A stretch of 64,000 bases of DNA from an uncultured Eubacteriales bacterium (GCA_900317035.1 ONFC01000001.1:462-64461), one strand, 5' to 3'; shown: positions 7,019-62,644, counted from the stretch's first letter. A program made the numbers and translations. The notes: generated by a model from the sequence alone, not told the origin.

Positions 7019-9199
7019 TTATTCTTCTTCCGGTTCTTCGTCAAAGGAATATTCAGAAGCCTTAAAGACGATATGGAATTCGGATCCTTTTCCTTCCTCG
7101 CTTTCGGCCCAGATCTTTCCGCCGTGCTTATCCATGATGCTCTTTACGATAGAAAGCCCGAGGCCGGATCCGGTCTTATTGATACCGGAATTCTCGGCAC
7201 GGTAGAAACGGTCGAACACGTAAGGAACTTCGTTTGCGGGAATGCCGACTCCGTTATCCTTGATCAGTACTTCCACGGCATTTCCGCCGAGCATGGCCGG
7301 ATCATCGTAGCGGTGACAGGTAATGTCGATCACGCCATCGTCACGGGTGTATTTCATGGCATTTACTATAATATTCTCGAATACGCGAAGCAGTTTCTTC
7401 GGATCACCGTCGATGAGAAGGTCATCATCTTCCGGGGCATGGAAATGCATGACTTTTTTTGTGCCCTCACACTCGGCATGATACAGCTGGAAAAGATCCT
7501 GTACCATTTCCTTTATGCTGATGGGCATCTTTTCGATCGTGTCATTCTCGGATTCCATTCGCGTCAGCTGTACAAGGTCAGAGATCAGCTGCTCCATCTG
7601 AACACTTCTGGTATGCATGTTCGAAAGATACTGTACTTCCTGCTCCCGTGACAGCGGTTCTTTCGCATTGAGCATTAATTCGATATACCCGCGGATGGCG
7701 GTGATCGGAGTCCTTAAGTCATGGGAGACATTGGACATGACTTTCTTTCTGGCATCCTCATTTTCCAGAAGTCTCTCGTGATTATGGAGAAGGTCCTGAT
7801 TTACGCGGGTGATGTATTTCGTCTTTTCTTCCACGGCGCTTTCCAGATTGCGGTTGTTATCCTCCAGCATCTCATAAGTGTGTACATAATCCTTGACGAA
7901 GTACAGTGTAAAGCCGATCGCAAGAAAGATGAGAAGGAATGCGTGAAGGGTGATATAGACGAAGTACTGGTATCGGACAAAGAAAGAGACATGCATCGCC
8001 GAAGAAAGAATAACGGAGGCAATATAAAGGAGCTTACCATGCTCGTAGCGCTTCGTCATATAAAATACCCGGAATATGTTATAGATACTGGTGACCAGTA
8101 TCAATACCATGTTCGCAACAACGGAAGAAGGCAGATACAAAAGACTCGGGAAGCACCAGAAAGTAAGAAGGTAGCAGCAGGTCAGCATCGAGAAGATGGA
8201 GATCTCGAAGAAACGAAGTTTATCGAAAAGCTTGCTGGTCCCCTTGGGATACAGCGAAAGGAAGAACAGGAATGACCAGTAGTTCGCGAAGATCATAAAG
8301 GTGATCGTGATCAGTTTATTCCAGTTCCCCGGCAGGATCGTAACCATCGGTGAACAAATTTCATACAGGATCTCGGAAAGGAACATTAGAAGGAAGAAGT
8401 GGAACTTGGCCCTTCCGTTGAAGGTCTTGGAGATGTAGTTTCCTCCGATGGCAAAGAAGACCCAGAACGCGCAAAGAACGGTAAGGTACATACGTACAGA
8501 ATACTCGATCATGCCGATCGTTGTGGTGGAGGCGATACACGGGCTGTAAAGAATACCTCCATATGGAGAGGAGTAGTTGGCGCAATCGATCACGATCTCG
8601 ATCTTTCCGTCGACAGGTACAAGCTGGATGTCCGTGCAGACCTGTGCCGGTTCGTATCGTTCTTTTAAATCGGAGACAGTACCGTAGTGACGGACCGCCT
8701 TGCCGTTTACCCAGATCGTCGCGGACTGGGCAATGTCCGGGATATTCAGGGTTACATAGTCGACAGACTTATTCAGGACAAGTTCGATACGGTATGTTCC
8801 TACGCCGAAACGCCCCATCTTCTGGACTTCTTCGCCGAAAGAATAAAGCTCTGCCTTATCTCCGAGATCCATCCAGCCGTTAGAGGATATCGTGACGCCC
8901 TTATAATACGGGTATTTGACCTTGCTGTTTTCCAGACGGCTGATACGGATCATCTCCGGAGTGAGAAGACGGTTCGGATAGAATTCCCAGCCGCTCTTGA
9001 TCGTGACCGGTGTTCCTTTCGTTTCTGTCCAGTTATTGAGATTCACAGCACCGGTGATCGTATAAGAAAAATCACTGCCATGCCGCTGGTTTACTGCTAA
9101 AAATGCCAGTGACATGACAGTGAGAATAATAACTAAGATAACTGCAGATATGCCGACAGAAAGAGGGTGCTTCTTTGATTTGCTACGATCTGACGACAT
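7019..9199 (-). CDS. sensor histidine kinase with extracytoplasmic domain and multi-TM (7TMR-DISM-like) sensor
   Basis: 726 aa. N-terminal TM, about 200-aa external domain and about 7 TM helices. H-box SHDLRTPITAIRGY, N-box NAMKYT, G-boxes DNGVGI and GSGLGLSIV. Confidence 0.9.
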   Translation of the reverse strand: MSSDRSKSKKHPLSVGISAVILVIILTVMSLAFLAVNQRHGSDFSYTITGAVNLNNWTETKGTPVTIKSGWEFYPNRLLTPEMIRISRLENSKVKYPYYKGVTISSNGWMDLGDKAELYSFGEEVQKMGRFGVGTYRIELVLNKSVDYVTLNIPDIAQSATIWVNGKAVRHYGTVSDLKERYEPAQVCTDIQLVPVDGKIEIVIDCANYSSPYGGILYSPCIASTTTIGMIEYSVRMYLTVLCAFWVFFAIGGNYISKTFNGRAKFHFFLLMFLSEILYEICSPMVTILPGNWNKLITITFMIFANYWSFLFFLSLYPKGTSKLFDKLRFFEISIFSMLTCCYLLTFWCFPSLLYLPSSVVANMVLILVTSIYNIFRVFYMTKRYEHGKLLYIASVILSSAMHVSFFVRYQYFVYITLHAFLLIFLAIGFTLYFVKDYVHTYEMLEDNNRNLESAVEEKTKYITRVNQDLLHNHERLLENEDARKKVMSNVSHDLRTPITAIRGYIELMLNAKEPLSREQEVQYLSNMHTRSVQMEQLISDLVQLTRMESENDTIEKMPISIKEMVQDLFQLYHAECEGTKKVMHFHAPEDDDLLIDGDPKKLLRVFENIIVNAMKYTRDDGVIDITCHRYDDPAMLGGNAVEVLIKDNGVGIPANEVPYVFDRFYRAENSGINKTGSGLGLSIVKSIMDKHGGKIWAESEEGKGSEFHIVFKASEYSFDEEPEEE

Positions 9200-47826: not shown

Positions 47827-49571
47827 ACAAAGTGAAGGTCCTGTTTGTCTCTTCGGAGGTCTATCCGTTTGCTAAAGTCGGTGGTCTGGCTGATGTTGTC
47901 GGTGCTCTGCCGGTGGAACTTCAGCATCACCACTGCGATGCCAGAGTAATCATGCCTCTTTATAAGAGCATCAAGCAGAAGCATGAGCACAACCTGGATT
48001 TTATCGGATGGAAAATGATCAAGATGGGCTGGAGATCCCTTTATGCGGGTCTTTACACTCTGACAATGAATGGTGTCCAGTTCTACTTTGTTGACAACGA
48101 GTATTATTTCAACTTTGATCAGGTCTATGTAGAGTACGTTTTCGATATCGAGCGTTTCTGCTTCTTCCAAAGAGCAGTGCTTGATTTCCTGGGAGACTTC
48201 ATGGGATTTGAGCCGGACGTACTGCACTGTAATGACTGGCAGGCCGGCATGATGCCGTTGCTTCTTGATGCACATTATAAGAAGTACGGTTATCACACGA
48301 ATATTAAGACGGTTTATACGATTCATAATCTGAAATATCAGGGTATTCACGGCATTGAAGTTATCCAGGATCTTCTCGATCTCCCGAGCGAGTATCTTAC
48401 AGATGAACTGTCGATCAAGGATGGTGCCGTAAACTTCATGAAGGCCGGTATCGTTTACAGTAACTCTGTAACGACTGTATCTCCGACCTATGCGTATGAG
48501 ATAATGACGGATTATTACGGCGAGGGCCTGAATCATACACTTCAGCGCTATGCGTATAAAGTATCCGGTATCCTCAATGGAATCAATGCGGAAGAGTATA
48601 ATCCTTCGAAAGACCCGATGATCCCTCAGAAATATTCGATCAAGAATTATGCAGAGGGAAAGGCCGTAAACAAGAAGTCTGTTCAGGAACAGCTGGGACT
48701 GGAAGTTAATCCGGGCGCTCCGCTTTGTACTATGATCTCTCGTCTTGTTGATCAGAAGGGCCTCGATCTTCTTCTTCGTGTCGTAGAGGAGATGCTTTAT
48801 GATGGCATGCAGATCGTTATTCTCGGAACCGGCGATGCATATTATGAGCGCTCTCTTGCAGATATCGCCGCGAGAAATCCGGGTAAGATGTGTGCATGTA
48901 TCTCCTTTGATAACGGACTGGCACATACGCTTTATGCCGGATCGGATATTTTCCTGATGCCGTCTCTGTTTGAGCCATGTGGCCTGTCTCAGCTGATCGC
49001 CATGACATATGGTACGATCCCGATTGTCCGTGAAACCGGCGGTCTTCGTGATACCGTTGTTCCGTATAACGAGTTTACAGGCGAAGGAAACGGATTCTCT
49101 TTTGCCAATATCAATGCGCATGAGTTCCTGTTCGTTACGAAGTATGCCTGTGACCTGTATCGTCACAATAAGCCCGTATGGAACAAACTTATCGAAGAAG
49201 GCATGAAAGCGGATTACTCCTGGAAGAAGTCTGCGGAAGAGTATGCCGGTCTGTATTCCTTCATTACGGGAATTTCTATTGCCGATGAAGAGGAACCTGA
49301 AAAGAAGCCTCTTACGGAAGAGATCCTCGATATCGGAAAAGAGAAAAAGGAAGAAGTACCGAAAAAGACGAAGAAAACTGTAGCGAAGAAGCCTGTAGCG
49401 AAAAAGACGGTAACAAAGGAACAGGTTTCCTCCGAGAAGAAGCCGTCTGCCGCCAAGACAGCTTCCAAGACTTCGAAACCGGCAGCGACTCCTGCGAAAA
49501 AAACATCGAAAGCTTCTTCGGATAAACCGGCATCAAAAGCAACCGGTACGAAGGAGAATAAGAAGTCATGA
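47823..49571 (+). CDS. glgA: glycogen synthase with about 100-aa Lys/Pro/Ser/Thr-rich C-terminal extension
   Basis: KVLFVSSEVYPFAKVGGLADVVGALP at the N-terminus. The catalytic core ends around aa 475. It is followed by EEEPEKKPL...KKTKKTVAKKPVAKKTVTKEQ...KPAATPAKKTSKASSDKPASKATGTKENKKS. Confidence 0.93.
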   Translation: MNKVKVLFVSSEVYPFAKVGGLADVVGALPVELQHHHCDARVIMPLYKSIKQKHEHNLDFIGWKMIKMGWRSLYAGLYTLTMNGVQFYFVDNEYYFNFDQVYVEYVFDIERFCFFQRAVLDFLGDFMGFEPDVLHCNDWQAGMMPLLLDAHYKKYGYHTNIKTVYTIHNLKYQGIHGIEVIQDLLDLPSEYLTDELSIKDGAVNFMKAGIVYSNSVTTVSPTYAYEIMTDYYGEGLNHTLQRYAYKVSGILNGINAEEYNPSKDPMIPQKYSIKNYAEGKAVNKKSVQEQLGLEVNPGAPLCTMISRLVDQKGLDLLLRVVEEMLYDGMQIVILGTGDAYYERSLADIAARNPGKMCACISFDNGLAHTLYAGSDIFLMPSLFEPCGLSQLIAMTYGTIPIVRETGGLRDTVVPYNEFTGEGNGFSFANINAHEFLFVTKYACDLYRHNKPVWNKLIEEGMKADYSWKKSAEEYAGLYSFITGISIADEEEPEKKPLTEEILDIGKEKKEEVPKKTKKTVAKKPVAKKTVTKEQVSSEKKPSAAKTASKTSKPAATPAKKTSKASSDKPASKATGTKENKKS

Positions 49572-51700
49572 CCTCACGGATCGCAAAGAATTCGGACTGT
49601 GTGGTGCATTGTTCGAGGCTTGCGGAGTACAGAACTCCTTTTGGAGCCCAGAAGACGGGCGGTTATGTGGATCTTTATATCGATGTAACTGTTCCTGTCG
49701 ATCAGATCGTTCTTTGTTATGCTTATGGTCTTTATGGCCTGTCGTATAACGAACTGCGGATGAAAAAATATGAAACAGTCCCGGACCGCTGGCATTGCCG
49801 TCTTCGCATGCCCTCTGAGCCGGGGCTGCTTTTTTACTGGTTCTGTTTGCGCAGCAGTGCAGAAGATATTGAAAGAATCGTTGATCCGGAGTGTCACGAT
49901 CTCCTGTATCGTAAATACGACGAAAGCCATACTTATCTTTATTATGTAGCATGCTGGGAAGGCGAAGACGGAAAAGGAAAGTTTGCGTTTAGCGCACCTC
50001 GTGTCGGTGTGGAAGAAGAGAAATACCCGCATGCTTTCCAGATCACGGTCTATGAAGACGGTTTCGTTACACCGGACTGGATGAAGGGTGCGGTTATGTA
50101 TCAGATATTCCCAGACCGTTTCTATCGCGGTTCAGATTACTCTTTTTCTGCAATGGAAGAGACAGGAAAAAGCCGTCCGGAACGGATATTCCATGAGGAC
50201 TGGAATGAAGATGTCGATATTGAAGGAAAACCGGAGACGGGATACCTTGCCTGTGACTTTTATGGAGGAACGCTCAAAGGTATCGCGGAGAAGGCGGATT
50301 ATCTTAAAACCCTGAATATTGATGTGCTTTACCTGAATCCGATCTGTGAAGCGAGATCAAATCACCGCTATGATACGGCAGATTATCTGAACGTCGATCC
50401 GATCCTTGGTGGGAAAAGCGGGTATAAGGCGTTTTCTGCCGTAATGAAAGAAAACAATATCCGGTACATTCTGGATGGCGTATTCAGCCACACCGGAGCG
50501 GACAGCCGGTATTTTAACAAGTATGGAAGATACGAAGCACCCGGGGCTTACAGTGCTTTTGCCGAAGGAAAAAACAGTGATTACTCATCCTGGTATGCTT
50601 TCTACCGTAATGAGAACGGGGACGTGGCCTACGATTCCTGGTGGGGTTTCCCGGAGCTTCCTAATACGAAAGAAGATGACCTTAGCTACCGCGAGTACAT
50701 ACTGGGACCTAATGGTGTTATCGCAAACTGGATCCGTGGAGGCGCCAGCGGTGTGAGACTCGATGTTTCAGACGAACTTCCGGATTCGTTTTTAAGGGAA
50801 ATGAGATCGGCTGTCAAACGATCCTCGGATGGAAACGCTCTGGTACTTGGCGAGGTCTGGGAAGAGGTAACCACGAAAATCAGCTATGGAAGCTAGCGTG
50901 ACTTTGCATTCGGAAGAACGCATGATACTGTCATGGGATATCCGTTCCGTGAGGCTCTTCTTTCTTTCCTGAAAGGGGAGACGAGCGCCCGTACATGGAG
51001 CCTGACCATGGAAAAGTACAGGGAGAATCTTCCTGATCAGATGTTCTACTGTATGATGAACCTGATCTCCAGTCATGACGTGCCTCGTGCGATCACGATG
51101 CTTGCAGGAGCTCCGGATCCGGGGAATCGGGAAGCACAGAAAGAGCTCCGTCTGACGAAGCATATGAAGAGCCGCGGGGCTGCATTGATGAAAATGGCAT
51201 TTGCACTTCAGATGACGTATCCTGGATGTCCTTGTACATACTATGGTGATGAAATCGGCATGGACGGTTATCGGGACCCGTTTAACCGAAGGACGTATCC
51301 GTGGGGAAAAGTCAGCGAGTGGCAGATGAATATCCTTTCAACATACCGCGAACTCAGTTCTCTTCGTTCCAGGTATGAAGTCCTTCGCTGCGGTGAGGTG
51401 AAGATCCTTTATGCGGATGGGGATGACCTGGTTTTCGAGAGATCCCTGGACAGCATGGGAAAAGACCATTTTGGCAAGCTTTGCAGTGGCCCTAAAAAGG
51501 TTTTGTGTATAATGAACCGTAGTGATAAAATAAAAATGCTGGTCCAGTTGGATGGAGAAACCGGGCTGAAGTCTATCGAACATATTCCGGAAATCTTTAC
51601 CGGAAGTGGCGAAACAGGATGTTTGGTGATCGGGCAGGATCAGAATGAGGAGAAAGTTGAGATACATCCTCTTTCAGCAATGATTTGTATCTTACATTAA
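49568..51700 (+). pseudogene. GH13 alpha-amylase/neopullulanase-like glycosidase interrupted by an in-frame TAG (50894-50896)
   Basis: ORFs 49568..50896 and 50933..51700 are in the same frame. The translation reads straight through as ...GVRLDVSDELP...[36 protein letters not shown]..., the conserved GH13 regions. Confidence 0.75.
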
Positions 51701-53035: not shown

Positions 53036-54931
53036 ATGACAGAAGAGAAGACACAGAAATTTACTGCTGGTAATCGGTTTGGCCGCTGGATCAGAGTTTT
53101 ATCCTGCACTCTGGTAATTGCTTTCTTAGGAGCACAGGGAATTGCAGCACTCCCGTCCGGATCGGCCAATAATCATCTTTCTAACGAAAGTTCGAACGGA
53201 TTAAATCCAGAAAACCCATTTAATTATGCACTTTATTGCTTCGGTAACCTCGAGGTTGGCGGAGGTCAGGGTCATCACTCTACCGGTGCTTTTGCCATCG
53301 GCGGTGACGCAAAGTTCGGTGACTTCTCCTTTGCAGCAAGCAACACCGCTCCGGGTGAGCGTGGTCTTTCTCAGCTTGTTGTTGTAGGTCAGCTGAATTT
53401 CGAAGCTCTCAATACACTCCGTGGTAATCTTGAAGTTTCTTCTGTGTCTAACATTCATGGTTCCACATATGGTTTCAGTTCTGATTCTTATCACATCGTT
53501 GAAGGTATTTCTCTTAACTTTGGTGAGAGAAAAGCAGCGATGGTTTCCCGCGCAAACAGCGCGAACAGTTTTGCACAGACAAATTCCAACGCGATCCTGA
53601 ATAAGCAGGGCGGCGGCGGATGGCTGGAAGTTGAAGCTAAGACTCCGGCTGGTTTTGATGCTGAGAATGATGTTCTTATCTTTAATCTCCCTGAAGGTAC
53701 AAACAAACTGTACATTCCGGAAGGCGTAAATGTTATCATCAATGTTCGCGGCGATTCTGTTAATTATTTCCCGCAGCTTATGTATGGTTCATTTAATGGA
53801 GCCAGCACACCGAACGATGGTGGTGACGATCGTGACCGTCATGTAGTTTGGAACTTTGCTGAAGCAAAGAGCATCTATGTTCCGGATAACCTGGCACTTC
53901 ATGGTGCAGTTCTTGCTCCGAACGCTTATATTCAGAAGCTCGGTGGTAATACAAACGGTGCGATCATCTGTGCATCTATGTTTACTACATCTGAGTTCCA
54001 TACTGTTTCTAACAGCGTAAAGTATAAGTTCAATACACCTACGCCGACACCGACAAACACACCGGTTCCGACACCGACAAATACACCTACGCCGATTCCG
54101 ACAAATACGCCGGTCCCGACACCGACAAATACACCTACGCCGATTCCGACAAATACGCCGGTCCCGACACCGACAAATACACCTACACCGACTCCGAAGC
54201 CGACGGCTACGCCAATCCCGACAGCAACACCTGTTCCGACGGCAACTCCGATCCCGTCTCCGACAGTGACACCGTCTCCGACGCCTACGCCGATTCCGAC
54301 ACCGACAAATACGCCGGTTCCGACTCCGACAAATACACCTACGCCGATTCCGACACCGACTAATACGCCGGTTCCGACTCCGACGAACACGCCGACTCCG
54401 ACACCGAAGCCGACAGCGACGCCGATTCCGACACCAACCCCTGTCCCGACGGCGACACCTATCCCGTCTCCGACAGCGACACCGTCTCCGACGCCTACAC
54501 CGGAACCGACAGCAACTCCGACTCCGTTGCCGACTGAGACGCCGACACCGTCGCCGACTCCGATCGTGGATGATGATGAGGATGAAATGACTCCTACACC
54601 TACACCGACGGCGACACCTACACCGACGGCAACTCCGATCCCGACAGCAACACCTGTTCCGACAGCTACTCCGTTGCCGTCACCGACTGAGACACCGGTA
54701 CCGACAGCGACTCCGCTCCCGACAGCAACTCCTGTTCCGACAGAGACACCTGTTCCGACGGATCCGCCGACACCGACTCCTGAAGGAACTGTATTGGGTG
54801 CGACCCGTGTTCCGAAGACAGGTGATACAGGAACTTCTGTGAAGCTCCTCGCAGGTCTGTTCTTCCTGGTTGTTTCCGCAGCAACATTAACTGTAGTTGT
54901 TGTTAAGAACAAAGAGGAAGAGGAAAATTAA
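53036..54931 (+). CDS. cell-wall-anchored surface protein (choice-of-anchor-A-like N-domain, Pro/Thr repeat stalk, LPXTG-like VPKTG sorting signal)
   Basis: 631 aa. Signal peptide. N-domain with [15 protein letters not shown]...[11 protein letters not shown]. About 250 aa of PT-rich repeats. C-terminal VPKTGD plus a hydrophobic helix and a charged tail. Confidence 0.75.
54032..54790 (+). repeat. in-frame tandem repeats encoding the Pro/Thr-rich stalk
   Basis: Near-identical DNA units (for example ACACCGACAAATACACCTACGCCGATTCCGACAAATACGCCGGTCCCGAC x2). There is also a higher-order repeat of about 240 nt encoding [47 protein letters not shown]. Confidence 0.85.
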
Positions 54932-54950
54932 ACAGATATTTCTAAACTTA

Positions 54951-54981
54951 AAAGGCTGCCTTTGAAAGGCAGCCTTTTTTG
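54951..54981 (+). terminator. rho-independent terminator after the surface protein gene
   Basis: AAAGGCTGCC-TTTGAAA-GGCAGCCTTT followed by TTT. Confidence 0.75.
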
Positions 54982-55031
54982 ATTTCCTATTTTAGAGTAA
55001 AATGGTTATGTACTAGGGGGGATAATAGTAT

Positions 55032-58000
55032 ATGATCGATCATTATGATGCGTTTATTTCTTATAAACATGCACCTTTGGATAACAAAGTAGCTGCACAT
55101 GTTCAGTCTAAACTGGAACATTTCCATATTCCTGCGAAAATCCGCAAGAAAACCGGTATGAAGCGCATCCAGCGTGTCTTCCGTGATAAAGATGAATTAC
55201 CTATTACCAGTGATCTAGGTGCGACCATTTCCCATGCGCTTGAAAACTCTAATTATCTGATCGTCATATGCTCTCATAACACTAGAAAGTCTGAGTGGGT
55301 CAGAAGAGAGATCCAGTATTTCCTGAAATATCATTCCAGACGGCAGATCCTTGCTGTTCTTGCAGAAGGTGAACCTTATGAAGTGCTTCCTGAAGATCTT
55401 CTTCGTGAGGAGGTCCGTGTTGTTCGCCCGGATGGGACGGAAGCCATTGTACTTCATGAGAAAGAACCTCTTTGCGCTGATTTCAGACAATCCATGCATA
55501 AAGCTGATAAAGAAGAACTGCCTCGTCTTGCGTCTGCTTTGATCGGATGTTCTTATGATGAACTGATGAATAGAAGACGTGCTTATCAGATGCAGAGAAT
55601 AACTGCGCTTAGTCTTGCATTTGTTACCCTTGCTTTTAGTGTCTTGTTATATCAGATTTGGAACCGTTCGAGATTACAGAAGAGTTATCGGGATACACTT
55701 CGTAATCAGGCTATATATCTTGCTAATGAATCTGAGAATTTTCTTGAACAGGAAAAACGTATAGATGCTATTCAGATGGCACTTGCAGCTCTGCCATCAG
55801 AGGATAATGACCGCCCGGTTACATCTGAAGCTGTTCGCGCGCTTACAGATGCGACATTGGCTTACAAGCCTTTAATGGGGACGAATATCGAAGCGGTTTG
55901 GAACTATAAAATGCCGTCAATGATAGAAAAAATGGCTCTGTCCCCGGAGCGAACATCACTGGCTGTATCAGATCAGACAGGTCTTTTGAATGTTTGGGAT
56001 ACAGAGGAACATCATCTTATTCTTGAAAAATCGTTTTCCGGTAAAGAGATCCTTTCTATTGAGTATTTGAAGGATGATTATCTTCTAGTCACTACATATT
56101 ATGAAGTGTATATGTTTCGTTTATCTACGCAGAAACAGGAATGGAGTTTCCCTATCGAAGATGGACAGAAACTGAATACATATTATGGATTGCTTCGTAT
56201 CGAATCCGATGAATCGTTTTTTCTTCTGACTAATAAGGACAAGATATATCATATTTCTACCGAGGATGGAGAACTTCTAGATTCGTATCAGCTACCTTCC
56301 CAGATTGATAATAATTTTGTAATTGGTAATGTATATTCTATTTCACCGGACGGTAAAAAAATAGCTGTCTGTATGGATTATGAGTTATCTCCTCATGTTG
56401 GAGTATATGATTTTTCTGATGGATCTTATAAATTGTGTCAAATTCAAGGTCCTGTTGTTCGCAACCTATTGTGGGCAGATGCTGAGACAATCATCGTTGT
56501 TGGATATGATATAAATTCTACGAATAATCTTCTTCGTTCGGATAGAATAATCGTTCAGCCTCATGCCGATGAAGTTTCCTGCATTGATGTATCTTCCATG
56601 ACACTTAGGTGGAGCCGTGAATGCTGTTATAATGTCGCACTTTATTACAATGAACTCCTTAAACTGCCGGCAAGAAATGCCGTAGCATATTCCACTGGAG
56701 ATGTGATGGAGATCTACGATCTCACAAGCGGAGATGTTCTTGGATCATATCAGGTGCAGCAGCTGATCGCAGACATTAGTGATAATGATGGTGATGGTAT
56801 ACCGACTTTTGTTACAGAATCAGGAGCTCTGGGTACAACTGTTGATTCTATGAATACGAATACTACGATGTACACCTTTGAGTTTGTGAAAAATATCGAT
56901 AATGTTCTTATTGGGAACGGGGTGTATATTCATCAAAAGGGAGCATCTGAAATCATATATTATGACACATTTGTAATGGATGATGAGTGGAAGGAAATGA
57001 ATCCTGATGTTGTCCTTTCTCAACCACAAAATTATTTTCTTGATGATGATTATCTGGTATTGCTTTCGCATAATGACAACTTTCCACATATAACTGTGTA
57101 TGATGCTGAAAAAAAGACCCTTATACGCGACATCGATATAGAAGATGCAGCTTCTTCTGAGGGAAGGATCCTTCAAATTGTTGATGACTTACTATATATA
57201 GCTGTAATTAATCAGGATGATGGTATTTTTATCTATAGTATTTCTTTGAAAGATGACAATCGGGAAGTAGTTTATGAAATCCAGGATCCGTTTTTTTTCC
57301 GTCAATTATTATGCTCTATGACAGGCGATTTTGTGACTTATATTTCCGAGGATAAAGAGACGCGTCAGGATCGGATATGTTTATACAATATCCGAAGTGG
57401 CGAGAGAGAATCATTCTCACTGCCGATGACGAGCTTTAATAGTTATGGTTTGCCGGTTTATTATCCGGAGCAAAATGCAATCATATATAATGACGAGGCT
57501 GGAAGTTTTGTGATTAATGTTGATAATAAAGATGTAAAACAGCTGCGTCTTCCGTCCAATTGGAGTAATACTACTTTTGTTGAACATGATAAAGATGGGA
57601 AAAGATGGATCATAGCGGATATGAGCCGCATTCTGGTTTTCGACTCAGAATGGAATCAGGAGATGGAACTTCAGACAAACGGCCGGACTGCGGTTGGAGC
57701 TGTATTTTATAAAGAGGGAACATCTTCTGAACAGATCCTGGTTGCTTTTAATGACGGATCATTTTACCGGTATGATGCTGAAAACGGCAATTTTATTGGA
57801 AAGACAGAAGTGGAGATGTATTATAACAGCTTGTATGACGCGAAAATGACAATCGATGAAGAACAAGGTCTGCTTTTTATTCAAACCGGTTTTATCACAG
57901 ATGTCGTTGATACAGAATCCTGGGTAGAGTTGGCGGTAGTATGGAATTCATACGGGTATCACAAACCGACGGATACTTTCTTTGCAAGCAGCTACAAAGG

Positions 58001-58127
58001 TAATTATGATTATCGCATCGGATATTTCAGGCATTATACATTACAGGAACTTAAGGATAAAGCATACAGGATCCTGAAAGGTTCGGAAATGTCTGAAGAG
58101 CAGAAAATGAGGTATGGTATCAGCTGA
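55032..58127 (+). CDS. TIR domain - single TM - large beta-propeller-like repeat protein
   Basis: 1031 aa. N-terminal TIR hallmarks (HYDAFISYKH..., NYLIVICSHNTRKSEWVRREIQYF). Hydrophobic helix ITALSLAFVTLAFSVLLYQIW near aa 190-212. About 800 aa of repetitive beta-rich sequence with WD40-like strings (LNVWDTEEHH). RBS AGGGGGG upstream. Confidence 0.8.
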   Translation: MIDHYDAFISYKHAPLDNKVAAHVQSKLEHFHIPAKIRKKTGMKRIQRVFRDKDELPITSDLGATISHALENSNYLIVICSHNTRKSEWVRREIQYFLKYHSRRQILAVLAEGEPYEVLPEDLLREEVRVVRPDGTEAIVLHEKEPLCADFRQSMHKADKEELPRLASALIGCSYDELMNRRRAYQMQRITALSLAFVTLAFSVLLYQIWNRSRLQKSYRDTLRNQAIYLANESENFLEQEKRIDAIQMALAALPSEDNDRPVTSEAVRALTDATLAYKPLMGTNIEAVWNYKMPSMIEKMALSPERTSLAVSDQTGLLNVWDTEEHHLILEKSFSGKEILSIEYLKDDYLLVTTYYEVYMFRLSTQKQEWSFPIEDGQKLNTYYGLLRIESDESFFLLTNKDKIYHISTEDGELLDSYQLPSQIDNNFVIGNVYSISPDGKKIAVCMDYELSPHVGVYDFSDGSYKLCQIQGPVVRNLLWADAETIIVVGYDINSTNNLLRSDRIIVQPHADEVSCIDVSSMTLRWSRECCYNVALYYNELLKLPARNAVAYSTGDVMEIYDLTSGDVLGSYQVQQLIADISDNDGDGIPTFVTESGALGTTVDSMNTNTTMYTFEFVKNIDNVLIGNGVYIHQKGASEIIYYDTFVMDDEWKEMNPDVVLSQPQNYFLDDDYLVLLSHNDNFPHITVYDAEKKTLIRDIDIEDAASSEGRILQIVDDLLYIAVINQDDGIFIYSISLKDDNREVVYEIQDPFFFRQLLCSMTGDFVTYISEDKETRQDRICLYNIRSGERESFSLPMTSFNSYGLPVYYPEQNAIIYNDEAGSFVINVDNKDVKQLRLPSNWSNTTFVEHDKDGKRWIIADMSRILVFDSEWNQEMELQTNGRTAVGAVFYKEGTSSEQILVAFNDGSFYRYDAENGNFIGKTEVEMYYNSLYDAKMTIDEEQGLLFIQTGFITDVVDTESWVELAVVWNSYGYHKPTDTFFASSYKGNYDYRIGYFRHYTLQELKDKAYRILKGSEMSEEQKMRYGIS

Positions 58128-59625
58128 CTGTTTCTACCTGCTTATAAAGAAGCGGGAATAAGTGCTTCTTTATGATATAGATGTCATGCTCATCCTCTTC
58201 ACGAACGGCGATATAATCACCGACGTTCCCGAGATAGTATTTTTCTTCGTCCCACTGTGTAAAGATCTTCACACTGCGATCGAGAGGCTTTGCGTAGATC
58301 AGTCCGCCACCACTGCTGACCACTGCCTGCGCATACTGCATGACGTCGATCCTCTGACCGGTAGCGAGATTCTTGATACTTGGCGAGTACTCGACTTTTC
58401 TTGAGTAAGGACGATGAAGCTCCGAATACCTGGAGCGGATCTTTTCTTCACTTGTCGGATAGACTTCACCCTCGATGCCGACCATGAGGTAACTATCGTC
58501 CTCTACAGTAATTACAACATCACCTTCAAGAGTTCGGATCTCAATCTGTGTCTTGGCAGGGAAGAGGTCAGCAAGGCGCACAATACCAACTTCCTGAGGA
58601 AGCTTCTCGTAAAGGGGCATTGAAGATGTGTCCAGAACGGTATCTTTGGTATAAAGTATCGTGAACATATCGAAGTATTCTTTCATACGCTCCTTCAGAA
58701 GTTCGGAAGGATCTTTATCCAGTTTCTCCGGGCGAAGGGAACCGCCGGCCTTTAAAATATGACCGCCGCCGCCGCCAAGGCCATCCGCAAGAAAAGCGGC
58801 GAGTTCATTGGCATGAACTTCTTTCGTACAGCTTCTTACTGAAAATTTGATCTCGTACTGGCTGACAAAATATGCCAGGCATACATCCACTTTATCTGTC
58901 TCAAGGGAAAAATCTGAAATAACGCCGAGAATGTTCGGATCACATGGCTCGGCCTGAAGGATCAGATAGTTGTGATCCTCGAAGAATTCAAAATCCAGGA
59001 TCGCTTTACCGGTAATTTTTAATTCGGAAAGAGATATGTTGGCATTACTCATTTTAGTAATCAGACTGCGCTGGATGCCGGGATTTAAAGAATCGATCAT
59101 ATCACGGTCGAGTGGGTGGGACACTTCGGAAAGACGGTTAGTGTCAGAATAAAGGCCGTAATAGAGCGCGGTAGCTAAGTTCTTGTCCTCGCACACATCC
59201 AGTCCCTCAGAACGGATCAGATCCCAGACAACGGTTGCGCAGCTGCCGATGTTGCTTCTGATCTCGGCAAGTTCAGGCAGGGCGACAGTAAGCTGATGGT
59301 GATCTATGATGGCAATATTTTTCGCTTTCGTTTGAGTAACATTTCTCTGTCCGTACTGACAGTCAACAGTGATGAGAAGATCCGGTTCTTCGTCAAAACC
59401 GTCAAACCCGGGCTCGTATGAAACCGGGATCGATAGCTCAGTCAGCATGATCACAAGATTGCTTTTCTGGACCTTGTTATTACCGCGGTAGATGAAACGA
59501 ACCTGTTTGCCTTGCTTGGCAAAGTACCAGTGAAGGGCCATTCCGCTGGCCAGAGCATCCGCGTCCGGATTGTCATGGCACTGGATCACGATGTTGTTAA
59601 ACGGTAAAAGATCACTAAGTCTCAT
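58120..59625 (-). CDS. DHH/DHHA1 family phosphoesterase with C-terminal extension
   Basis: 501 aa. DHH motifs (QCHDNPDADALAS, IIDHH) and the DHHA1 motif GGGGGHILKAGG. There are about 170 extra C-terminal residues. The stop overlaps the TIR gene stop by 8 nt (convergent). Confidence 0.8.
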   Translation of the reverse strand: MRLSDLLPFNNIVIQCHDNPDADALASGMALHWYFAKQGKQVRFIYRGNNKVQKSNLVIMLTELSIPVSYEPGFDGFDEEPDLLITVDCQYGQRNVTQTKAKNIAIIDHHQLTVALPELAEIRSNIGSCATVVWDLIRSEGLDVCEDKNLATALYYGLYSDTNRLSEVSHPLDRDMIDSLNPGIQRSLITKMSNANISLSELKITGKAILDFEFFEDHNYLILQAEPCDPNILGVISDFSLETDKVDVCLAYFVSQYEIKFSVRSCTKEVHANELAAFLADGLGGGGGHILKAGGSLRPEKLDKDPSELLKERMKEYFDMFTILYTKDTVLDTSSMPLYEKLPQEVGIVRLADLFPAKTQIEIRTLEGDVVITVEDDSYLMVGIEGEVYPTSEEKIRSRYSELHRPYSRKVEYSPSIKNLATGQRIDVMQYAQAVVSSGGGLIYAKPLDRSVKIFTQWDEEKYYLGNVGDYIAVREEDEHDIYIIKKHLFPLLYKQVETVS

Positions 59626-59710: not shown

Positions 59711-59739
59711 TTGACACGGTTCGGGTCTATCAGTATAAT
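59711..59739 (+). promoter_or_regulatory. consensus sigma-A promoter of tRNA-Leu
   Basis: TTGACA (59711-59716), a 17-nt spacer, then TATAAT (59734-59739). Confidence 0.7.
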
Positions 59740-59759: not shown

Positions 59760-59842
59760 GCGGCGGTGGCGGAATTGGCAGACGCGCACGTTTGAGGGGC
59801 GTGTGGGCGACCATACGGGTTCAAGTCCCGTTCGCCGCACCA
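59760..59842 (+). tRNA. tRNA-Leu (anticodon GAG)
   Basis: Acceptor GCGGCGG/TCGCCGC, anticodon arm CACGT-TTGAGGG-GCGTG, variable arm TGG-GCGA-CCA, T arm ACGGG-TTCAAGT-CCCGT, encoded CCA. Confidence 0.9.
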
Positions 59843-60004: not shown

Positions 60005-61975
60005 ATGGGGTGTAGATTTAAAAGACTTGCCAGCTTGGTGCTGTCTGTTTCAATGATAGTTTCTCTTACTGCCTGTGCATCTAAAAACGAAAAAAAAGAG
60101 GATGAGCCATCCTTTGTTTCTTCCGCCACAACATTCCTTGATGCGGCAGTAAAACTTGATTCGAAAAAAATCAAGAAACTGGATAAAGAATTCGGTGTCG
60201 GAAAAAGCTTTGTAAATGAACTAAGTGATATCGCCGATAATAAATATGTGCAAACGATCATGGATAAGGCTTCCTTTGAGATCGACGAGGACTCTATTAA
60301 AGAAACAAAGAAAAAAGCATCCTGTGAGGTTGCTGTTACCTTACCGGATTACGAGAAGGCTTTTAACGAAGCAGAGAGCTTTGGGGAGTTTGAAGATCTC
60401 ATCTCTTCACAAAAGGAAAAGAAATACAAGGTACAGAATCTTGATCTGGAGTTTAAGATCAAAGACGGCGAGTACATCCTGGAAAGTGAAGAAGCCGGAG
60501 ATTTTATCGAGGATCTCTATGATGAGATGCTTGAAATGATTAGTGATTTTGAGTATGTTATCTCCCGATTCACAGATAGACCAACTCCTACTACAACTAC
60601 GGATATGCCAACAGCTACTCCTGAACCAACTCCAGAACCGACTACGACAGAACCTACTTATACGGATGGCGCTGTTACCCAAAAAGACAGCTATGGTAAT
60701 GGTTCGGTCGTGATCAATCTTTATACGATGAGCCCGGAAGTTCCGAATATGGTCCGTGTTTTTATGGAGCAAAATCCGGATATGGCATCAAAGTATGTTG
60801 TCATTACTATGGTATGCCAGAATGCGAGCAAGGCATATGAGACGCGGCTGAATGCGGCTTTGACTGCAGGAGGAGCCGGAGCACCGGACATTTATGTTGC
60901 TGAGGCCGATTATCTTCTGCCATATAGCCAGGGTGCTTTTGCACAATATGCGGCACCTTATTCTGATTTTATCGATAATTTCAACGCGAAACTGAACGAC
61001 GCGCAAATTGCCCAGTATACGGTCGATCTTGGTACGAATCCGGATGGGAAAACAGTAGCACTGGGGTATCAGAGCACCGGTGGAGCGATGATCTATTCTT
61101 CATCTATCGCCAGAAAAGTATTTGGATCAGATGATCCTGCTGTAATCGAGGAAACAGTTGGAGCCGGATCCGGAAACTGGACGAAATTCGTTGAAGCCTG
61201 TAAGAAACTGAATCAGAAAGGCTATGCACCCGTTGCTGATATTAATGACCTTTGGACAGTCTGTTCAAAGGGCTCTGCTACACCGTGGGTCGTTGATGGT
61301 CAGCTTAATATCGATCCATTGAAAGATGAATATTTAGATCTTGCAAAGCAGATGATCGATAATAACTGGACAAATGAGACGCGAAACTGGTCGATGGACT
61401 GGTATGATGCTATGAATGGCAAATCCAAGGACCCTAAAACAAATAAAGTCCGTAAGGTGTTTGCTTTCTTTGGACCGGCATGGCTGATCAATTACTCTAT
61501 GGCTGCTGAAGCAACAGATACGAGAGGGGACTGGCGTGTCTGCAAATCACCGGTTAGCTTCTGGTGGGGAGGAACGTGGATCTTCGCCAATAAAGATAGT
61601 ATTGGAAACGCAGACAAAAAAGAGTTTATTTCCCGTTTCCTGGATTGGGTAACTCTGGATACATCTGATACAGGTCTTCAGTATATGTGGGCTTCCGGTT
61701 TATTAAATGACGCAGGAACAAAGGATACGGTAGCATCGGGCAAAGTTCTGTCCATGATAGATGGAAGCATGGATTTCCTGGGAGGTCAGAATGCGTTCCC
61801 TATCTTTATTGAAGCTAGTAACAGCGCTTCTTCTTTAGATGTTACTGAGTATGATGCGCCTCTGAATAGTGAATTCTCATTCCAGGCTGAAAGCTATGCA
61901 CGTGGTGAGATTTCAAAAGATAAGGCGATATCGGATTTTAAAGAATATTGTGCTTCGTTGGGCTTATCTGTCTGA
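60005..61975 (+). CDS. ABC-type extracellular solute-binding lipoprotein with extra N-terminal lipoprotein domain
   Basis: 656 aa. Lipobox LTAC. An N-terminal domain of about 190 aa is paralogous to the next gene. A PT-rich linker follows, then a family-1 SBP-like body of about 440 aa. No permease or ATPase genes are adjacent. Confidence 0.7.
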   Translation: MGCRFKRLASLVLSVSMIVSLTACASKNEKKEDEPSFVSSATTFLDAAVKLDSKKIKKLDKEFGVGKSFVNELSDIADNKYVQTIMDKASFEIDEDSIKETKKKASCEVAVTLPDYEKAFNEAESFGEFEDLISSQKEKKYKVQNLDLEFKIKDGEYILESEEAGDFIEDLYDEMLEMISDFEYVISRFTDRPTPTTTTDMPTATPEPTPEPTTTEPTYTDGAVTQKDSYGNGSVVINLYTMSPEVPNMVRVFMEQNPDMASKYVVITMVCQNASKAYETRLNAALTAGGAGAPDIYVAEADYLLPYSQGAFAQYAAPYSDFIDNFNAKLNDAQIAQYTVDLGTNPDGKTVALGYQSTGGAMIYSSSIARKVFGSDDPAVIEETVGAGSGNWTKFVEACKKLNQKGYAPVADINDLWTVCSKGSATPWVVDGQLNIDPLKDEYLDLAKQMIDNNWTNETRNWSMDWYDAMNGKSKDPKTNKVRKVFAFFGPAWLINYSMAAEATDTRGDWRVCKSPVSFWWGGTWIFANKDSIGNADKKEFISRFLDWVTLDTSDTGLQYMWASGLLNDAGTKDTVASGKVLSMIDGSMDFLGGQNAFPIFIEASNSASSLDVTEYDAPLNSEFSFQAESYARGEISKDKAISDFKEYCASLGLSV

Positions 61976-62002
61976 AACTAAATTATTTGGAGGAAATAGT
62001 AT

Positions 62003-62644
62003 ATGAAGAAATCAGTAAAATTCGTTAGTGCAATTCTTTCGGGGGTCATGGCACTTTCACTGGCTGGCTGCAGTTCCGGTTCGAGCAATAAGAAGGTAGT
62101 CAAAGAAGCGGAAGCTGTGCTGGAAGAGATCACATCCTTAGACTATAAGAGTATGAAGGCTCGTGATGCATACAGTAAACAATATATCGATATGGTTAAG
62201 TCGATCTCCAAAGATGAGATGAATGTATTGCTGTGGAGTAAAGCGAAAATATCTGTCGATTCCGATAGCGTTAAGACGAAAAAGGGAAAAACAACTTGTG
62301 AAGCTACGGTAGATATTATCGAGTACAAAACTTTAGTAAAAGTATTTACTAAAGAATATAGAATGGATGAATTCGATGATGACGATGAAGCTATGGAAGC
62401 CATGAAGGAAATCATCGATAAAGTGAAAGAAAAAGATTATACATCCATTGATGTAACGCTGGAATTCGAAGAAGATGATGGTGATTATCTGCTGGAGAAC
62501 GGGGATGAGATTTTCCAGGATCTGTTTTTTGAAGTTTTCCAACAGGTGGATGGGAATCCATATGTAGAAAAATCAAAAGAGAATCAAGAGAAAGAAAAAG
62601 CACGTAGAGAGAGCATCGAATCTGCTGCTGCAGAGGATGATTAA
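62003..62644 (+). CDS. lipoprotein of unknown function (paralogue of the N-terminal domain of the preceding gene)
   Basis: 213 aa. Lipobox LAGC. Shared strings with the SBP N-domain: K..SCEV.V..PDY versus KTTCEATVDIIEY, and LEFKIKDGEYILE versus LEFEEDDGDYLLE. Confidence 0.6.
   Translation: MKKSVKFVSAILSGVMALSLAGCSSGSSNKKVVKEAEAVLEEITSLDYKSMKARDAYSKQYIDMVKSISKDEMNVLLWSKAKISVDSDSVKTKKGKTTCEATVDIIEYKTLVKVFTKEYRMDEFDDDDEAMEAMKEIIDKVKEKDYTSIDVTLEFEEDDGDYLLENGDEIFQDLFFEVFQQVDGNPYVEKSKENQEKEKARRESIESAAAEDD

Follow-up and report, generated by a model that had tools for sequence, protein, structure and literature searches.

An uncultured Eubacteriales bacterium carries, on the 64,000-nucleotide stretch of its DNA analysed here (the window), a gene for a 1031-aa protein made up of four parts (from the N-terminus, a TIR domain, one hydrophobic helix, a conserved stalk of helices and a tandem beta-propeller), next to a gene for a DHH/DHHA1 phosphoesterase. 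We favour, tentatively and at a little under even confidence, the reading that a ligand-gated TIR receptor enzyme is here paired with a nucleotide phosphodiesterase in a resident two-gene module of rumen Clostridia; a regulated signalling pair is our best reading of the locus, in preference to a mobile suicide system. The coordinates, strand and length of the reading frame agree with those in an earlier note written from the DNA alone (the sequence-only reading). The features of the TIR gene are the following, with the evidence in brackets:

55032..58127, + strand: TIR - TM - stalk - tandem beta-propeller gene (ORF, 1031 aa)
55032..55544, + strand: TIR domain, residues 1-171, predicted cytoplasmic (Pfam, structure-profile matches, model)
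55308..55310, + strand: codon of Glu93, the putative catalytic glutamate in SEWVRREI (invariance; alignment to Roq1/7uxr)
55599..55661, + strand: predicted single TM helix, residues 190-210, ITALSLAFVTLAFSVLLYQIW (hydropathy; model)
55665..55871, + strand: juxtamembrane stalk and helical bundle, residues 212-280 (conservation; helices 175-239, 243-252 and 265-274 in the model)
55887..58031, + strand: tandem beta-propeller ectodomain, residues 286-1000, about 15-16 blades, predicted outside the membrane (AlphaFold2, Foldseek)
56781..56804, + strand: D-x-D-x-D-G loop DNDGDGIP, residues 584-591 (near-invariance)
58041..58124, + strand: C-terminal tail of conserved helices, GYFRHYTLxELIxKA...YGI (modelled as helices 1004-1015 and 1022-1027)

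The protein belongs to a family that is large and uncharacterised and varies little in length. More than 1520 homologues were found, the best 120 of which are mostly 1012-1045 aa long, and relatives are encoded by at least 522 species genomes, the hosts being mostly rumen Lachnospiraceae and other Clostridiales. Purifying selection acts on the gene, and the AlphaFold2 model of its product has a mean pLDDT of 89.1 and a pTM of 0.76. The TIR-TM-stalk module is common to paralogues of about 580, 800 and 1000 aa, and a single genome can carry several copies. Every size class of the superfamily keeps the C-terminal helices, the variants of 587 aa and 477 aa among them; linkage to a DHH gene is absent in the other TIR-TM size classes.

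The TIR domain was recognised over residues 8-116 by two Pfam models above their cut-offs (TIR_2, 44.2 bits, cut-off 28; ThsB_TIR, 39.5 bits, cut-off 21.2), with the Pfam TIR model exactly at its own (21.3 bits, cut-off 21.3). The profile of the region also matched solved TIR structures (7uxr, Roq1, L6 and TLR2), and strands alternate with helices in the modelled TIR residues. Glu93, within SEWVRREIQYF, is invariant in 116/116 aligned homologues and is paired in the profile alignment with the catalytic glutamate of Roq1 (residue 86, WCLEEL) and with the glutamate of WTEYEL in the bacterial TIR 7uxr. Both the N-terminal TIR domain and the catalytic-type glutamate that had been proposed from the DNA were thus recovered. 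The same profile pairs E93 with the glutamate of WCKYEL in TLR2, whose TIR is a scaffolding one and for which no NADase activity is known, so that the glutamate is insufficient by itself as a sign of an NADase. W89, S87 and the FRDKxELP loop are, like E93, invariant or nearly so, and the omega of the TIR part is 0.03-0.06 against L002; this invariance, together with an omega of about 0.03, suggests that the domain holds an active site and is more than an interface. We infer that the TIR domain is probably an enzyme that cleaves or cyclises NAD+.

The segment ITALSLAFVTLAFSVLLYQIW is the only strongly hydrophobic one in the protein, in keeping with the one helix that had been read there, and in the model residues 190-210 lie inside a single continuous 65-residue helix (175-239). 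An uncharged stretch of 19-27 residues was present in 116/116 family members, one segment per protein, with a mean 19-residue Kyte-Doolittle hydropathy of 1.99 versus 1.18 for the next-best segment. Across the family the sequence of this stretch changes but stays hydrophobic, as membrane-spanning segments typically do. The appeal of the sequence-only reading to the positive-inside rule holds for the family, in which the helix is flanked by a mean of 4.99 K/R on the N-terminal side versus 3.54 on the C-terminal side (N-terminal excess in 82% of members), but not for the 1031-aa sequence itself, where the charge rule is indecisive because 4 K/R precede the helix and 5 follow it. No N-terminal signal sequence was found in the 1031-aa protein. 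Across the helix, arginine drops from 7.3% to 2.4% and the net charge goes down to -9 per 100 residues, the ectodomain being acidic and arginine-poor in composition. The helix and the family-wide charge bias support, as a prediction, the architecture that had been put forward, with the TIR domain in the cytosol, one TM helix and an extracytoplasmic propeller; the outside location of the propellers hangs on that one predicted helix. Beyond the helix, the stalk (consensus RNQxxYLANES...AIQxALAALP...RPVTxEAVRALTDATLAY) is as conserved as the TIR part.

Residues 286-1000 are all-beta in the AlphaFold2 model (63 beta-strands, with most 10-residue blocks at a pLDDT >90), and Foldseek matched the ectodomain to the tandem WD40-type double propellers of Apaf-1, Utp21 and COPI (E about 1e-20), bearing out the beta-propeller that had been suspected from repeat-like strings. 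Pfam reported no canonical WD40 repeats (PF00400) for the 1031-aa protein. ANAPC4_WD40 scored 29.1 bits against a whole-protein cut-off of 22.9, with none of its stretches passing alone, and the remaining propeller models, whose weak matches include BamB-type PQQ_2 and TolB, were all under their cut-offs; because the Pfam propeller and WD40 matches fall under the curated cut-offs, the assignment is based on the structure model. The ectodomain has a median pairwise identity of 29% and an omega of 0.2-0.3, and diverges at about the rate of the neighbouring lipoproteins. Synonymous divergence (dS) jumps at residue ~285, a sign that recombination has exchanged the ectodomain: the segment that encodes it has moved within a resident gene, between close relatives. 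In the DNDGDGIP loop, D584, D586, D588, G589 and P591 are each kept in at least 90% of sequences. The loop resembles a calcium-binding one and is a putative site of that kind, the DxDxDG motif being the calcium-binding motif of integrin FG-GAP repeats and dockerins. This loop, the acidic, arginine-poor composition and the lipoprotein-like rate of divergence all favour an outside location of the ectodomain.

The neighbouring gene has two features:

58120..59625, - strand: 501-aa DHH/DHHA1 phosphoesterase, cytoplasmic (Pfam, motifs, Foldseek, adjacency)
58123..58695, - strand: beta-rich C-terminal domain of the DHH protein, residues 311-501 (no fold assigned)

Pfam assigned DHH (57.5 bits) and DHHA1 (30.4 bits) to this protein, and the DxD, DHH and GGGH motifs are invariant in its family. 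In Foldseek comparisons its fold was most like that of phosphodiesterases of nucleotides and dinucleotides, with E about 1e-17 for TmPDE, DhhP, Rv2837c, NrnA and the catalytic domain of GdpP. None of the named DHH subfamilies (NrnA, GdpP, family II pyrophosphatase and RecJ) exceeded its NCBIfam equivalog cut-off, the top score being 45 bits versus a cut-off of 283 (NrnA, 16.6 versus 350). The best Foldseek matches span only ~346 columns, about what the DHH-DHHA1 core alone would take up, and therefore appear to leave the C-terminal domain (~190 aa) uncovered; this domain gave no Pfam match and no meaningful PDB sequence match. Many of its polar and aromatic residues are invariant, among them R364, T365, E367, D369, E387, K453, W458, D470, D478 and D481. 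The omega of the DHH gene is ~0.03.

The TIR and DHH genes share 8 bp, in agreement with the convergent overlap that had been described. The DHH gene is the only conserved neighbour of the TIR gene and is adjacent to it in 66 of 80 related loci; since these loci were picked by their TIR gene, the sample cannot show related genomes that are without it. When loci were chosen by the DHH gene alone, a TIR gene was adjacent in 7/7, and the claim of a single-gene module does not survive this linkage. All four relative orientations of the two genes occur, amid unrelated flanking genes. About two thirds of the loci, the window included, are convergent, an arrangement that precludes co-transcription of the pair there; among co-directional DHH-to-TIR loci, 15/17 have a stop-start spacing of -4 to +2 nt. 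Some double-propeller copies are also found without an adjacent DHH gene. Divergence in the DHH protein goes with divergence in the TIR protein's cytoplasmic part (correlation r = 0.74). As the DHH protein is conserved at housekeeping level, the TIR gene might simply have remained next to a core gene, but adjacency through all the changes of orientation and flanks, together with the overlapping stop and start codons, makes inherited gene order alone unlikely.

Two further features lie outside the gene pair:

54950..54986, + strand: intrinsic terminator of the upstream adhesin gene (13-bp stem with 6 G-C pairs, then a T-run)
59760..59842, + strand: tRNA-Leu(GAG), outside the module (ARAGORN)

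The sequence-only reading had seen an AT-rich composition, the strong upstream terminator, the convergent overlap and the nearby tRNA gene as compatible with horizontal acquisition. The observations themselves are correct: the GC content of the gene is 0.393 versus 0.471 for neighbouring genes (GC3, 0.339 versus 0.493), the 13-bp stem and T-run (54950-54978) lie ~50 nt ahead of the TIR start codon, and tRNA-Leu lies 1.63 kb from the TIR stop codon. The reading of them as marks of acquisition fails. The GC content of the TIR gene is lower than its surroundings in 84% of loci, so that the low GC is real but partly a family trait, and the locus is syntenic. Synteny of the whole neighbourhood, tRNA-Leu included, extends to relatives with just 37-75% identity in the TIR protein. 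tRNA-Leu was rejected as an integration site, being a syntenic neighbour at the same relative position in 10/10 syntenic relatives. No att-like repeats flank the TIR gene, searches of viral contigs and of phage genomes found no relative, and plasmids gave no full-length copy. Glycogen genes and genes for surface proteins flank the locus, housekeeping flanks were found in every locus inspected, and no defence, phage or plasmid context surrounds the locus. The TIR-DHH locus is resident and not an acquired island.

Under the favoured reading of a regulated receptor-phosphodiesterase pair, the protein would be a single-pass receptor enzyme with its N-terminus inside and its TIR domain right beneath the membrane, and the continuous 65-residue helix would join this domain rigidly to the stalk and the outside propellers. 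A ligand on the variable propellers would alter receptor association within the membrane, and the TIR domains would thereby reach the oligomeric contacts that TIR enzymes require and would cleave or cyclise NAD+ to an ADP-ribose-derived nucleotide. The cytoplasmic DHH/DHHA1 enzyme, acting in the same pathway, would hydrolyse this nucleotide as signal turnover or off-switch; alternatively, its C-terminal domain may sense the nucleotide and control the phosphodiesterase. Both the ligand gating and the DHH substrate are inferred. Taken as a specific chain, in which binding outside the cell leads directly to cytoplasmic synthesis of an NAD+-derived nucleotide messenger and the linked DHH protein is the dedicated phosphodiesterase or sensor, the proposal is possible but somewhat doubtful. 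Candidate cues are a variable macromolecule met at the surface, belonging to a phage or to a competitor, or else a glycan of plant or cell-wall origin, the latter being a plausible cue type in rumen bacteria by analogy with the glycan-binding tandem propellers of Bacteroides. If true, this would be the first prokaryotic TIR receptor signalling from outside to inside in a TLR-like manner, and a new second-messenger pathway not necessarily confined to immunity.

The sequence-only reading had named, among its options, abortive infection triggered at the envelope. In such a system adsorbing phage or a damaged envelope would be what the ectodomain senses, and the TIR domains, once clustered, would exhaust NAD+ and so halt growth, with the DHH protein at most removing basal product and so preventing self-activation. 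Characterised bacterial TIR proteins with the conserved glutamate do act in conflict systems, a hypervariable ectodomain exchanged by recombination between close relatives would suit a phage sensor, and several paralogous receptors are possible per genome. One short variant overlaps by 4 bp a gene for a patatin phospholipase, patatins being a common defence effector, and related TIR-TM-WD40 genes stand in tandem on a conjugative Methylorubrum plasmid. We nevertheless consider this reading unlikely, since genomic context lends it no support: the locus is syntenic across relatives, with housekeeping flanks and no defence island in the loci inspected, and neither viral contigs nor phage genomes carry the family, while plasmids carry no full-length copy of it. 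PADLOC gave only weak, partial matches of ThsB models to the TIR protein (E 1e-4 to 1e-3) and no match for the partner. The cytoplasmic module and the DHH partner are conserved at housekeeping level, NAD+ depletion alone needs no dedicated, tightly linked phosphodiesterase, and fast evolution is expected of any surface-exposed protein, the neighbouring lipoproteins evolving about as fast.

Less probable still is a non-enzymatic role, in which the TIR domain would do no more than scaffold protein interactions, the protein as a whole would serve the structure or assembly of the cell envelope by means of BamB/TolB-like propellers, and the DHH gene would be a neighbour by inherited gene order with no shared function. 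The aligned glutamate in the scaffolding TIR of TLR2, the weak PQQ_2 and TolB matches, a Mur ligase gene that adjoins the TIR gene in some clades and the mostly convergent pairs are consistent with such a role; the (near-)invariance of E93, W89, S87 and FRDKxELP at a TIR omega of ~0.03, and an adjacency that persists through changes of orientation and flanks, overlapping stop and start codons included, argue against it. Finally, it is very improbable that the whole protein is cytoplasmic, like the soluble TIR-WD40 proteins of conflict systems, with a hydrophobic helix that does not span the membrane and serves oligomerisation or peripheral membrane attachment. WD40-type propellers are cytoplasmic as a rule, tandem ones such as Apaf-1 are typically intracellular sensors and TIR domains fused to repeats are a known intracellular architecture, but the uncharged, hydrophobic stretch of 19-27 residues in all 116 members, the charge bias fitting a cytoplasmic N-terminus and the sharp change of composition across the helix speak for a membrane protein.

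Among known systems, a cytoplasmic signalling enzyme with an extracytoplasmic beta-propeller sensor is found in the M. tuberculosis kinase PknD and in the hybrid two-component systems of Bacteroides, in the latter of which tandem periplasmic propellers bind glycans. The TIR-propeller protein shares with these the predicted order of cytoplasmic enzyme, membrane helix or helices and outside propeller, and differs in having a TIR domain where they have a kinase output; no sequence relation to them was detected, save a faint Reg_prop match in an unrelated gene next to L086. The partner shares its two-domain catalytic fold and a complete set of catalytic motifs with TmPDE, the GdpP catalytic domain, DhhP, Rv2837c/CnpB and NrnA/Pde2, at low sequence similarity (at most 39 bits to any solved structure), and unlike those stand-alone phosphodiesterases it has the extra conserved ~190-aa C-terminal domain and the linkage to a TIR gene. 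TIR-TM-WD40 and TIR-TM-TPR proteins, uncharacterised and annotated only as 'TIR domain-containing protein', are encoded by the Methylorubrum extorquens CM4 plasmid pCMU01 and a Rhizobium leguminosarum plasmid. These alphaproteobacterial proteins have the same order of parts and a similar SxWVxxE motif, and the LALAALP stalk of the Methylorubrum ones resembles the stalk described here; they differ in their plasmid-borne tandem copies, canonical WD40 or TPR repeats and want of a DHH partner. At the Methylorubrum TIR-TM-WD40 locus there is a gene for a metallophosphoesterase at a distance of 2.3 kb.

Thoeris, for which a 2025 survey predicted 29 types, shares with the present pair a TIR of TIR_2/ThsB_TIR type with the conserved glutamate and a two-gene layout whose partner could act on or respond to an NAD+-derived nucleotide. 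ThsB is short, soluble and responsive to intracellular cues, whereas the TIR-propeller protein combines a TM helix with a ~800-aa ectodomain; the Thoeris partner is a ThsA-type effector, whereas here it is a DHH/DHHA1 phosphoesterase. No ThsA-type effector (signal-binding plus toxic domain) was found beside the TIR gene, the DHH gene being its sole conserved neighbour, and the main text of the survey makes no mention of DHH. TIR-DHH loci lie amid housekeeping genes, outside the defence islands and mobile locations by which Thoeris systems are recognised. An E. coli TIR system with a TM domain and Dictyostelium TirC, which has an N-terminal TM helix, are membrane-attached TIR NADases; the accessible parts of their sources describe a large ectodomain for neither, so that they would seem to be tethered enzymes and not outside-sensing receptors. 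In the searchable literature we found no bacterial TIR protein described as having a large ectodomain, in line with the departure from soluble bacterial designs that had been claimed, and a 2024 survey of E. coli TIR systems states that TLR-like features seem absent from bacterial TIR systems. Compared with animal Toll-like receptors, the TIR domain here is N-terminal and the ectodomain C-terminal, the reverse of their order, tandem beta-propellers stand in place of leucine-rich repeats, adaptor proteins are absent and the TIR domain is likelier an enzyme than a scaffold. The likeness is one of logic rather than of shown common descent: both designs have, here as a prediction, a single membrane pass, a repeat-built ectodomain and a cytosolic TIR domain, and both join a conserved signalling domain to a variable ligand-binding one.

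The gene for the TIR protein lies where the sequence-only reading had placed it. The AlphaFold2 model of its product (mean pLDDT 89.1, pTM 0.76; 116-sequence alignment) is divided as follows, given together with the convergent gene for a DHH/DHHA1 phosphoesterase.

Features of the TIR gene, the modelled TIR protein and the DHH gene
55032..58127, + strand: TIR gene, an ORF of 1031 aa
Residues 1-171: TIR-like domain of alternating strands and helices (AlphaFold2 model)
Residues 175-239: one unbroken helix enclosing the hydrophobic segment 190-210 (AlphaFold2 model)
Residues 243-274: small helical bundle (AlphaFold2 model)
Residues 286-1000: beta region of 63 strands (AlphaFold2 model)
Residues 584-591: nearly invariant D-x-D-x-D-G loop of the ectodomain
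C-terminus of the TIR protein: helices (AlphaFold2 model)
58120-59625, - strand: DHH gene, 501 aa

The N-terminal domain is a bona fide TIR. Residues 8-116 matched the Pfam models TIR_2 (44.2 bits; cut-off 28) and ThsB_TIR (39.5 bits; cut-off 21.2), and every match of the protein to the Pfam propeller models fell under its cut-off. The SEWVRREIQYF motif read from the sequence is present, with the codon of Glu93 at 55308-55310. Across 116 aligned homologues, most of them full-length, no or almost no variation was seen at E93, W89 and S87, in the AFISY strand or in the FRDKxELP loop. A profile of the TIR region compared with solved structures aligned E93 to residue 86 of Roq1 (WCLEEL; E86 is the catalytic residue of Roq1) and to the WTEYEL glutamate of the bacterial TIR 7uxr. 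The same profile also paired E93 with a glutamate of TLR2, so the residue is necessary for catalysis, yet no proof of it.

Foldseek searches with the beta region matched tandem WD40-type double propellers (Apaf-1, Utp21 and COPI; E ~1e-20), in agreement with the propeller expected from the sequence. Each family protein carried exactly one strongly hydrophobic segment (mean 19-residue hydropathy 1.99, against 1.18 for the next-best), which is an uncharged stretch of 19-27 residues across the family. Lysine and arginine residues numbered on average 4.99 on the N-terminal side of the helix versus 3.54 on the C-terminal side, with an N-terminal excess in 82% of the family. The window's own protein has 4 versus 5, so that the positive-inside argument by which the sequence-only reading had put the TIR domain in the cytoplasm is valid at the family level only. 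An N-terminal signal sequence was absent from the protein. NAD+, the expected substrate of the TIR domain, is cytoplasmic. The ectodomain is acidic (net charge -9 per 100 residues), contains 2.4% arginine versus 7.3% in the TIR part, and bears the D-x-D-x-D-G loop, presumably a calcium-binding motif of the kind typical of extracellular proteins. The missing signal sequence, the expected use of NAD+, the acidic and arginine-poor ectodomain and the loop all fit export of the ectodomain, and we infer a cytoplasmic N-terminus and an exported C-terminus. An exported, propeller-only paralogue was considered as separate proof of topology and rejected, because the gene concerned (477 aa, in locus L087) aligns to the TIR-TM-stalk part.

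The inside and outside parts have evolved differently. Identity to the nearest relatives was 95-100% for flanking proteins, 95-97% for the DHH protein and 74-75% for the TIR protein. Synonymous divergence (dS) from L001, one of the loci compared with the window, was 0.04-0.16 for residues 1-285, 0.7-2.2 for residues 286-1031 and 0.25-0.55 for the flanking genes; this jump marks a recombination breakpoint at the stalk-propeller junction. Relative to a second such locus, L002, the DHH gene had an omega of 0.03 and the TIR part one of 0.03-0.06; most of the ectodomain reached ~0.2-0.3, which resembles the neighbouring lipoproteins. Across the family, median pairwise identity fell from 65% in DHH and 61% in the cytoplasmic module to 29% in the ectodomain. 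As the sequence-only reading had noted by eye, the TIR gene has a GC content below that of its neighbours; the same drop, chiefly in the ectodomain part, occurs in 84% of loci, so that low GC is largely a family trait, although it is unusually strong in the window and its two closest relatives (GC3 ~0.34-0.36 versus ~0.50). Downstream of the tRNA, two predicted lipoproteins (window 60005-62644) diverge at about the rate of the TIR ectodomain; they are 62-75% identical to their closest relatives, and dS of the first reaches 2.3. In this neighbourhood, hypervariability appears to be general among surface-exposed proteins.

Clustering of ORFs across 80 related loci returned the 501-aa DHH protein as the sole conserved neighbour family of the TIR gene, present in 66 of the 80 loci in addition to the window. 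It is downstream and convergent in ~46 of the 67 loci (window counted), often with the window's 8-bp overlap, and directly upstream on the same strand in ~21 of the 67. Of 17 full-length co-directional pairs, 15 had the DHH stop -4 to +2 nt from the TIR start, a spacing typical of translationally coupled operon genes. When sampling was anchored on DHH homologues picked irrespective of TIR, all seven adjoined a TIR-TM gene; these loci include the TIR-to-DHH same-strand order and a divergent DHH beside a 587-aa short TIR-TM variant, and their flanks are wholly different (among them ribosomal protein genes, folate enzymes, a methionine synthase-like B12-binding gene, a melibiase, an antiporter). 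That adjacency is kept through every orientation and context suggests a shared function. The sampled 585-, 803- and 997-aa TIR-TM classes had no adjoining DHH gene, and a superfamily-wide linkage was therefore rejected; the linkage is specific to the double-propeller family and one short variant. A second conserved partner was likewise rejected, since the unannotated genes of ~480-600 aa beside several pairs are mutually unrelated.

At L086 (3238-5891), the 587-aa short variant, divergent to its DHH gene, shares a 4-bp overlap with a gene for a patatin-like phospholipase that also has DUF6363, which could be the effector in this sub-type. Cyclic-di-GMP genes (EAL, GGDEF-EAL and response regulator-GGDEF) adjoin TIR-TM genes in several unrelated loci (L081:10572-12503; L086:1404-3134 and 7506-8876; L098:9737-10864). 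This proximity may be chance, as these genomes appear to hold several such genes.

The DHH protein consists of DHH and DHHA1 domains with invariant DxD, DHH and GGGH motifs (model pLDDT 90.3), followed by a strongly conserved C-terminal domain of ~190 aa. Its closest folds (Foldseek, E ~1e-17) are nucleotide and dinucleotide phosphodiesterases, namely TmPDE, the GdpP catalytic domain, DhhP, Rv2837c and NrnA/Pde2; these matches appear to leave the C-terminal domain uncovered. Against named DHH subfamilies the protein scored far under every cut-off, and the C-terminal domain had no match in Pfam and no sequence match in the PDB.

More than 1520 homologues of the TIR protein were collected, of which the best 120 show 34-99% identity, mostly measure 1012-1045 aa and are known by automatic names only. 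Relatives are encoded in at least 522 species-representative genomes, nearly all from rumen or herbivore-gut Lachnospiraceae and other Clostridiales, and the family is abundant in fibre-degrading Clostridia of the rumen. Cultured carriers include Eubacterium ruminantium ATCC 17233, Butyrivibrio sp. CB08 and the Lachnospiraceae bacteria C6A11 and AC2031. An exhaustive representative search with the ectodomain only gave 134 clusters at E <= 1e-30, a number that rose to 630 when the threshold was relaxed to E <= 1e-3. Among the 150 matches listed, the match begins nearly always at about residue 215 of a protein of ~1020-1060 aa, and this near-constant start and length indicate a fixed architecture. 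Apparent exceptions with another N-terminus, P0023 (an apparent ABC ATPase fusion) and P0020 (no TIR), are truncated or chimeric gene calls. In the wider superfamily the TIR-TM-stalk module is held in common at ~50% identity and the ectodomain varies in size (proteins of ~580, 800 and 1000 aa). Plasmids of Methylorubrum and Rhizobium encode the parts in this order as well, the repeats being canonical WD40 or TPR, so that the receptor-like TIR architecture reaches beyond Clostridia.

Several loci carry more than one such gene. The conjugative plasmid pCMU01 of Methylorubrum extorquens CM4 (L096:1884-7850) encodes tandem TIR-TM-stalk-WD40 proteins of 982 and 973 aa, with a metallophosphoesterase gene 2.3 kb downstream, and a Rhizobium leguminosarum plasmid (L097) encodes a TIR-TM-TPR protein and a TIR-TM-unknown protein. 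At L087 (5001-8201), a 585-aa TIR-TM-short-ectodomain gene is followed after 9 nt by the 477-aa paralogue, which keeps the TM helix, stalk and C-terminal tail and has a TIR without FISY, Trp and Glu (KSEWVRREI replaced by DSDAAMDLI); from the sequences, this looks like a pair of intact and degenerate receptors. Double-propeller genes without an adjoining DHH gene are found in tandem in Butyrivibrio sp. X503 (L079:6863-13129) and convergent at L012 (2528-9697). The metagenome-assembled genome RGIG7868 has two double-propeller copies on separate contigs, one of them DHH-linked.

The window pair is flanked on one side by glgC, glgD, starch synthase, alpha-amylase, a zinc-ribbon membrane protein and an LPXTG-like adhesin, and on the other by tRNA-Leu, lipoproteins and a protein of the metallo-beta-lactamase fold. 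Relatives with a TIR-protein identity of only 37-75% keep this gene order, tRNA-Leu(GAG) included. We found no att-like or direct repeats around the TIR gene, no family member in 2.9 million viral contigs (IMG/VR) or in deposited phage genomes, and no full-length copy on plasmids. On these negatives and the syntenic tRNA a mobile-element origin was rejected, and the horizontal acquisition raised by the sequence-only reading is not upheld. Rfam returned only the tRNA at the locus, with no regulatory RNA; directly upstream of tRNA-Leu(GAG) is a perfect 12/12 sigma-70 consensus promoter (window 59711-59739; TTGACA, 17 nt, TATAAT). The gene upstream of the TIR gene (window 53036-54931) encodes a 631-aa surface protein that is poorly conserved among relatives. 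It combines a pAdhesive_15 domain with a long Pro/Thr-rich stretch encoded by tandem DNA repeats of 12-36 nt, and its C-terminus (VPKTG, then a hydrophobic tail) resembles a sortase signal. The alpha-amylase-family gene (window 49568-51700) is broken into the ORFs 49568-50896 and 50933-51700, which match separate portions of one Pfam domain; the break could reflect a frameshift, a pseudogene or a sequencing error.

Our preferred reading, held tentatively and with each functional statement a prediction, is that the TIR protein is a ligand-gated receptor enzyme forming a resident signalling module with the DHH protein. The constant inside, variable outside and rigid helical link fit a receptor, and the intact TIR active-site motif fits an enzyme output. 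With a dedicated partner that resembles a phosphodiesterase, turnover or sensing of a nucleotide product is a better fit than plain exhaustion of NAD+. The abortive infection put forward in the sequence-only reading, for which the known biology of bacterial TIRs and the hypervariable ectodomain speak, is a less likely rival. It is disfavoured by housekeeping surroundings, by synteny that is conserved, by defence-model matches that are weak for the TIR protein and absent for its partner, and by the kind of partner. A pure structural or scaffold role is improbable, and a wholly cytoplasmic protein highly improbable, both being less likely than the receptor or abortive-infection readings.

If the preferred reading is true, a TIR enzyme on one membrane helix with a large, fast-evolving outside sensor would extend bacterial TIR chemistry to the cell surface. 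It would inform two questions: by what route a receptor logic like that of animal Toll-like receptors comes about, and whether NAD+-derived nucleotides serve as ordinary second messengers beyond phage defence. The tight pairing offers a biochemical handle, the DHH protein being a candidate hydrolase or sensor for TIR products, and the cultured carriers make direct testing possible.

To our knowledge, characterised bacterial TIR systems are all soluble and sense intracellular events. The main text of a 2025 survey of 29 predicted Thoeris types contains no DHH partner or propeller, and according to a 2024 survey of E. coli TIRs, TLR-like membrane features seem absent from bacterial TIR systems. 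The earlier comparative-genomics papers that we searched do not describe a TIR-TM-propeller architecture, and a full-text literature search returned no account of any large ectodomain on a bacterial TIR, nor of TIR and DHH as a pair. The chemistry of TIR domains is known, as is the single-pass receptor, but neither the union of the two nor the pairing with DHH seems to have been described before. The window system lacks a ThsA-type effector and a defence context, which sets it outside Thoeris. From Toll-like receptors the protein is separated by its reversed orientation, a propeller in place of LRRs and the absence of adaptors; its logic nevertheless resembles theirs, and also that of PknD and the hybrid two-component systems of Bacteroides, bacterial receptor enzymes that sense through propellers.
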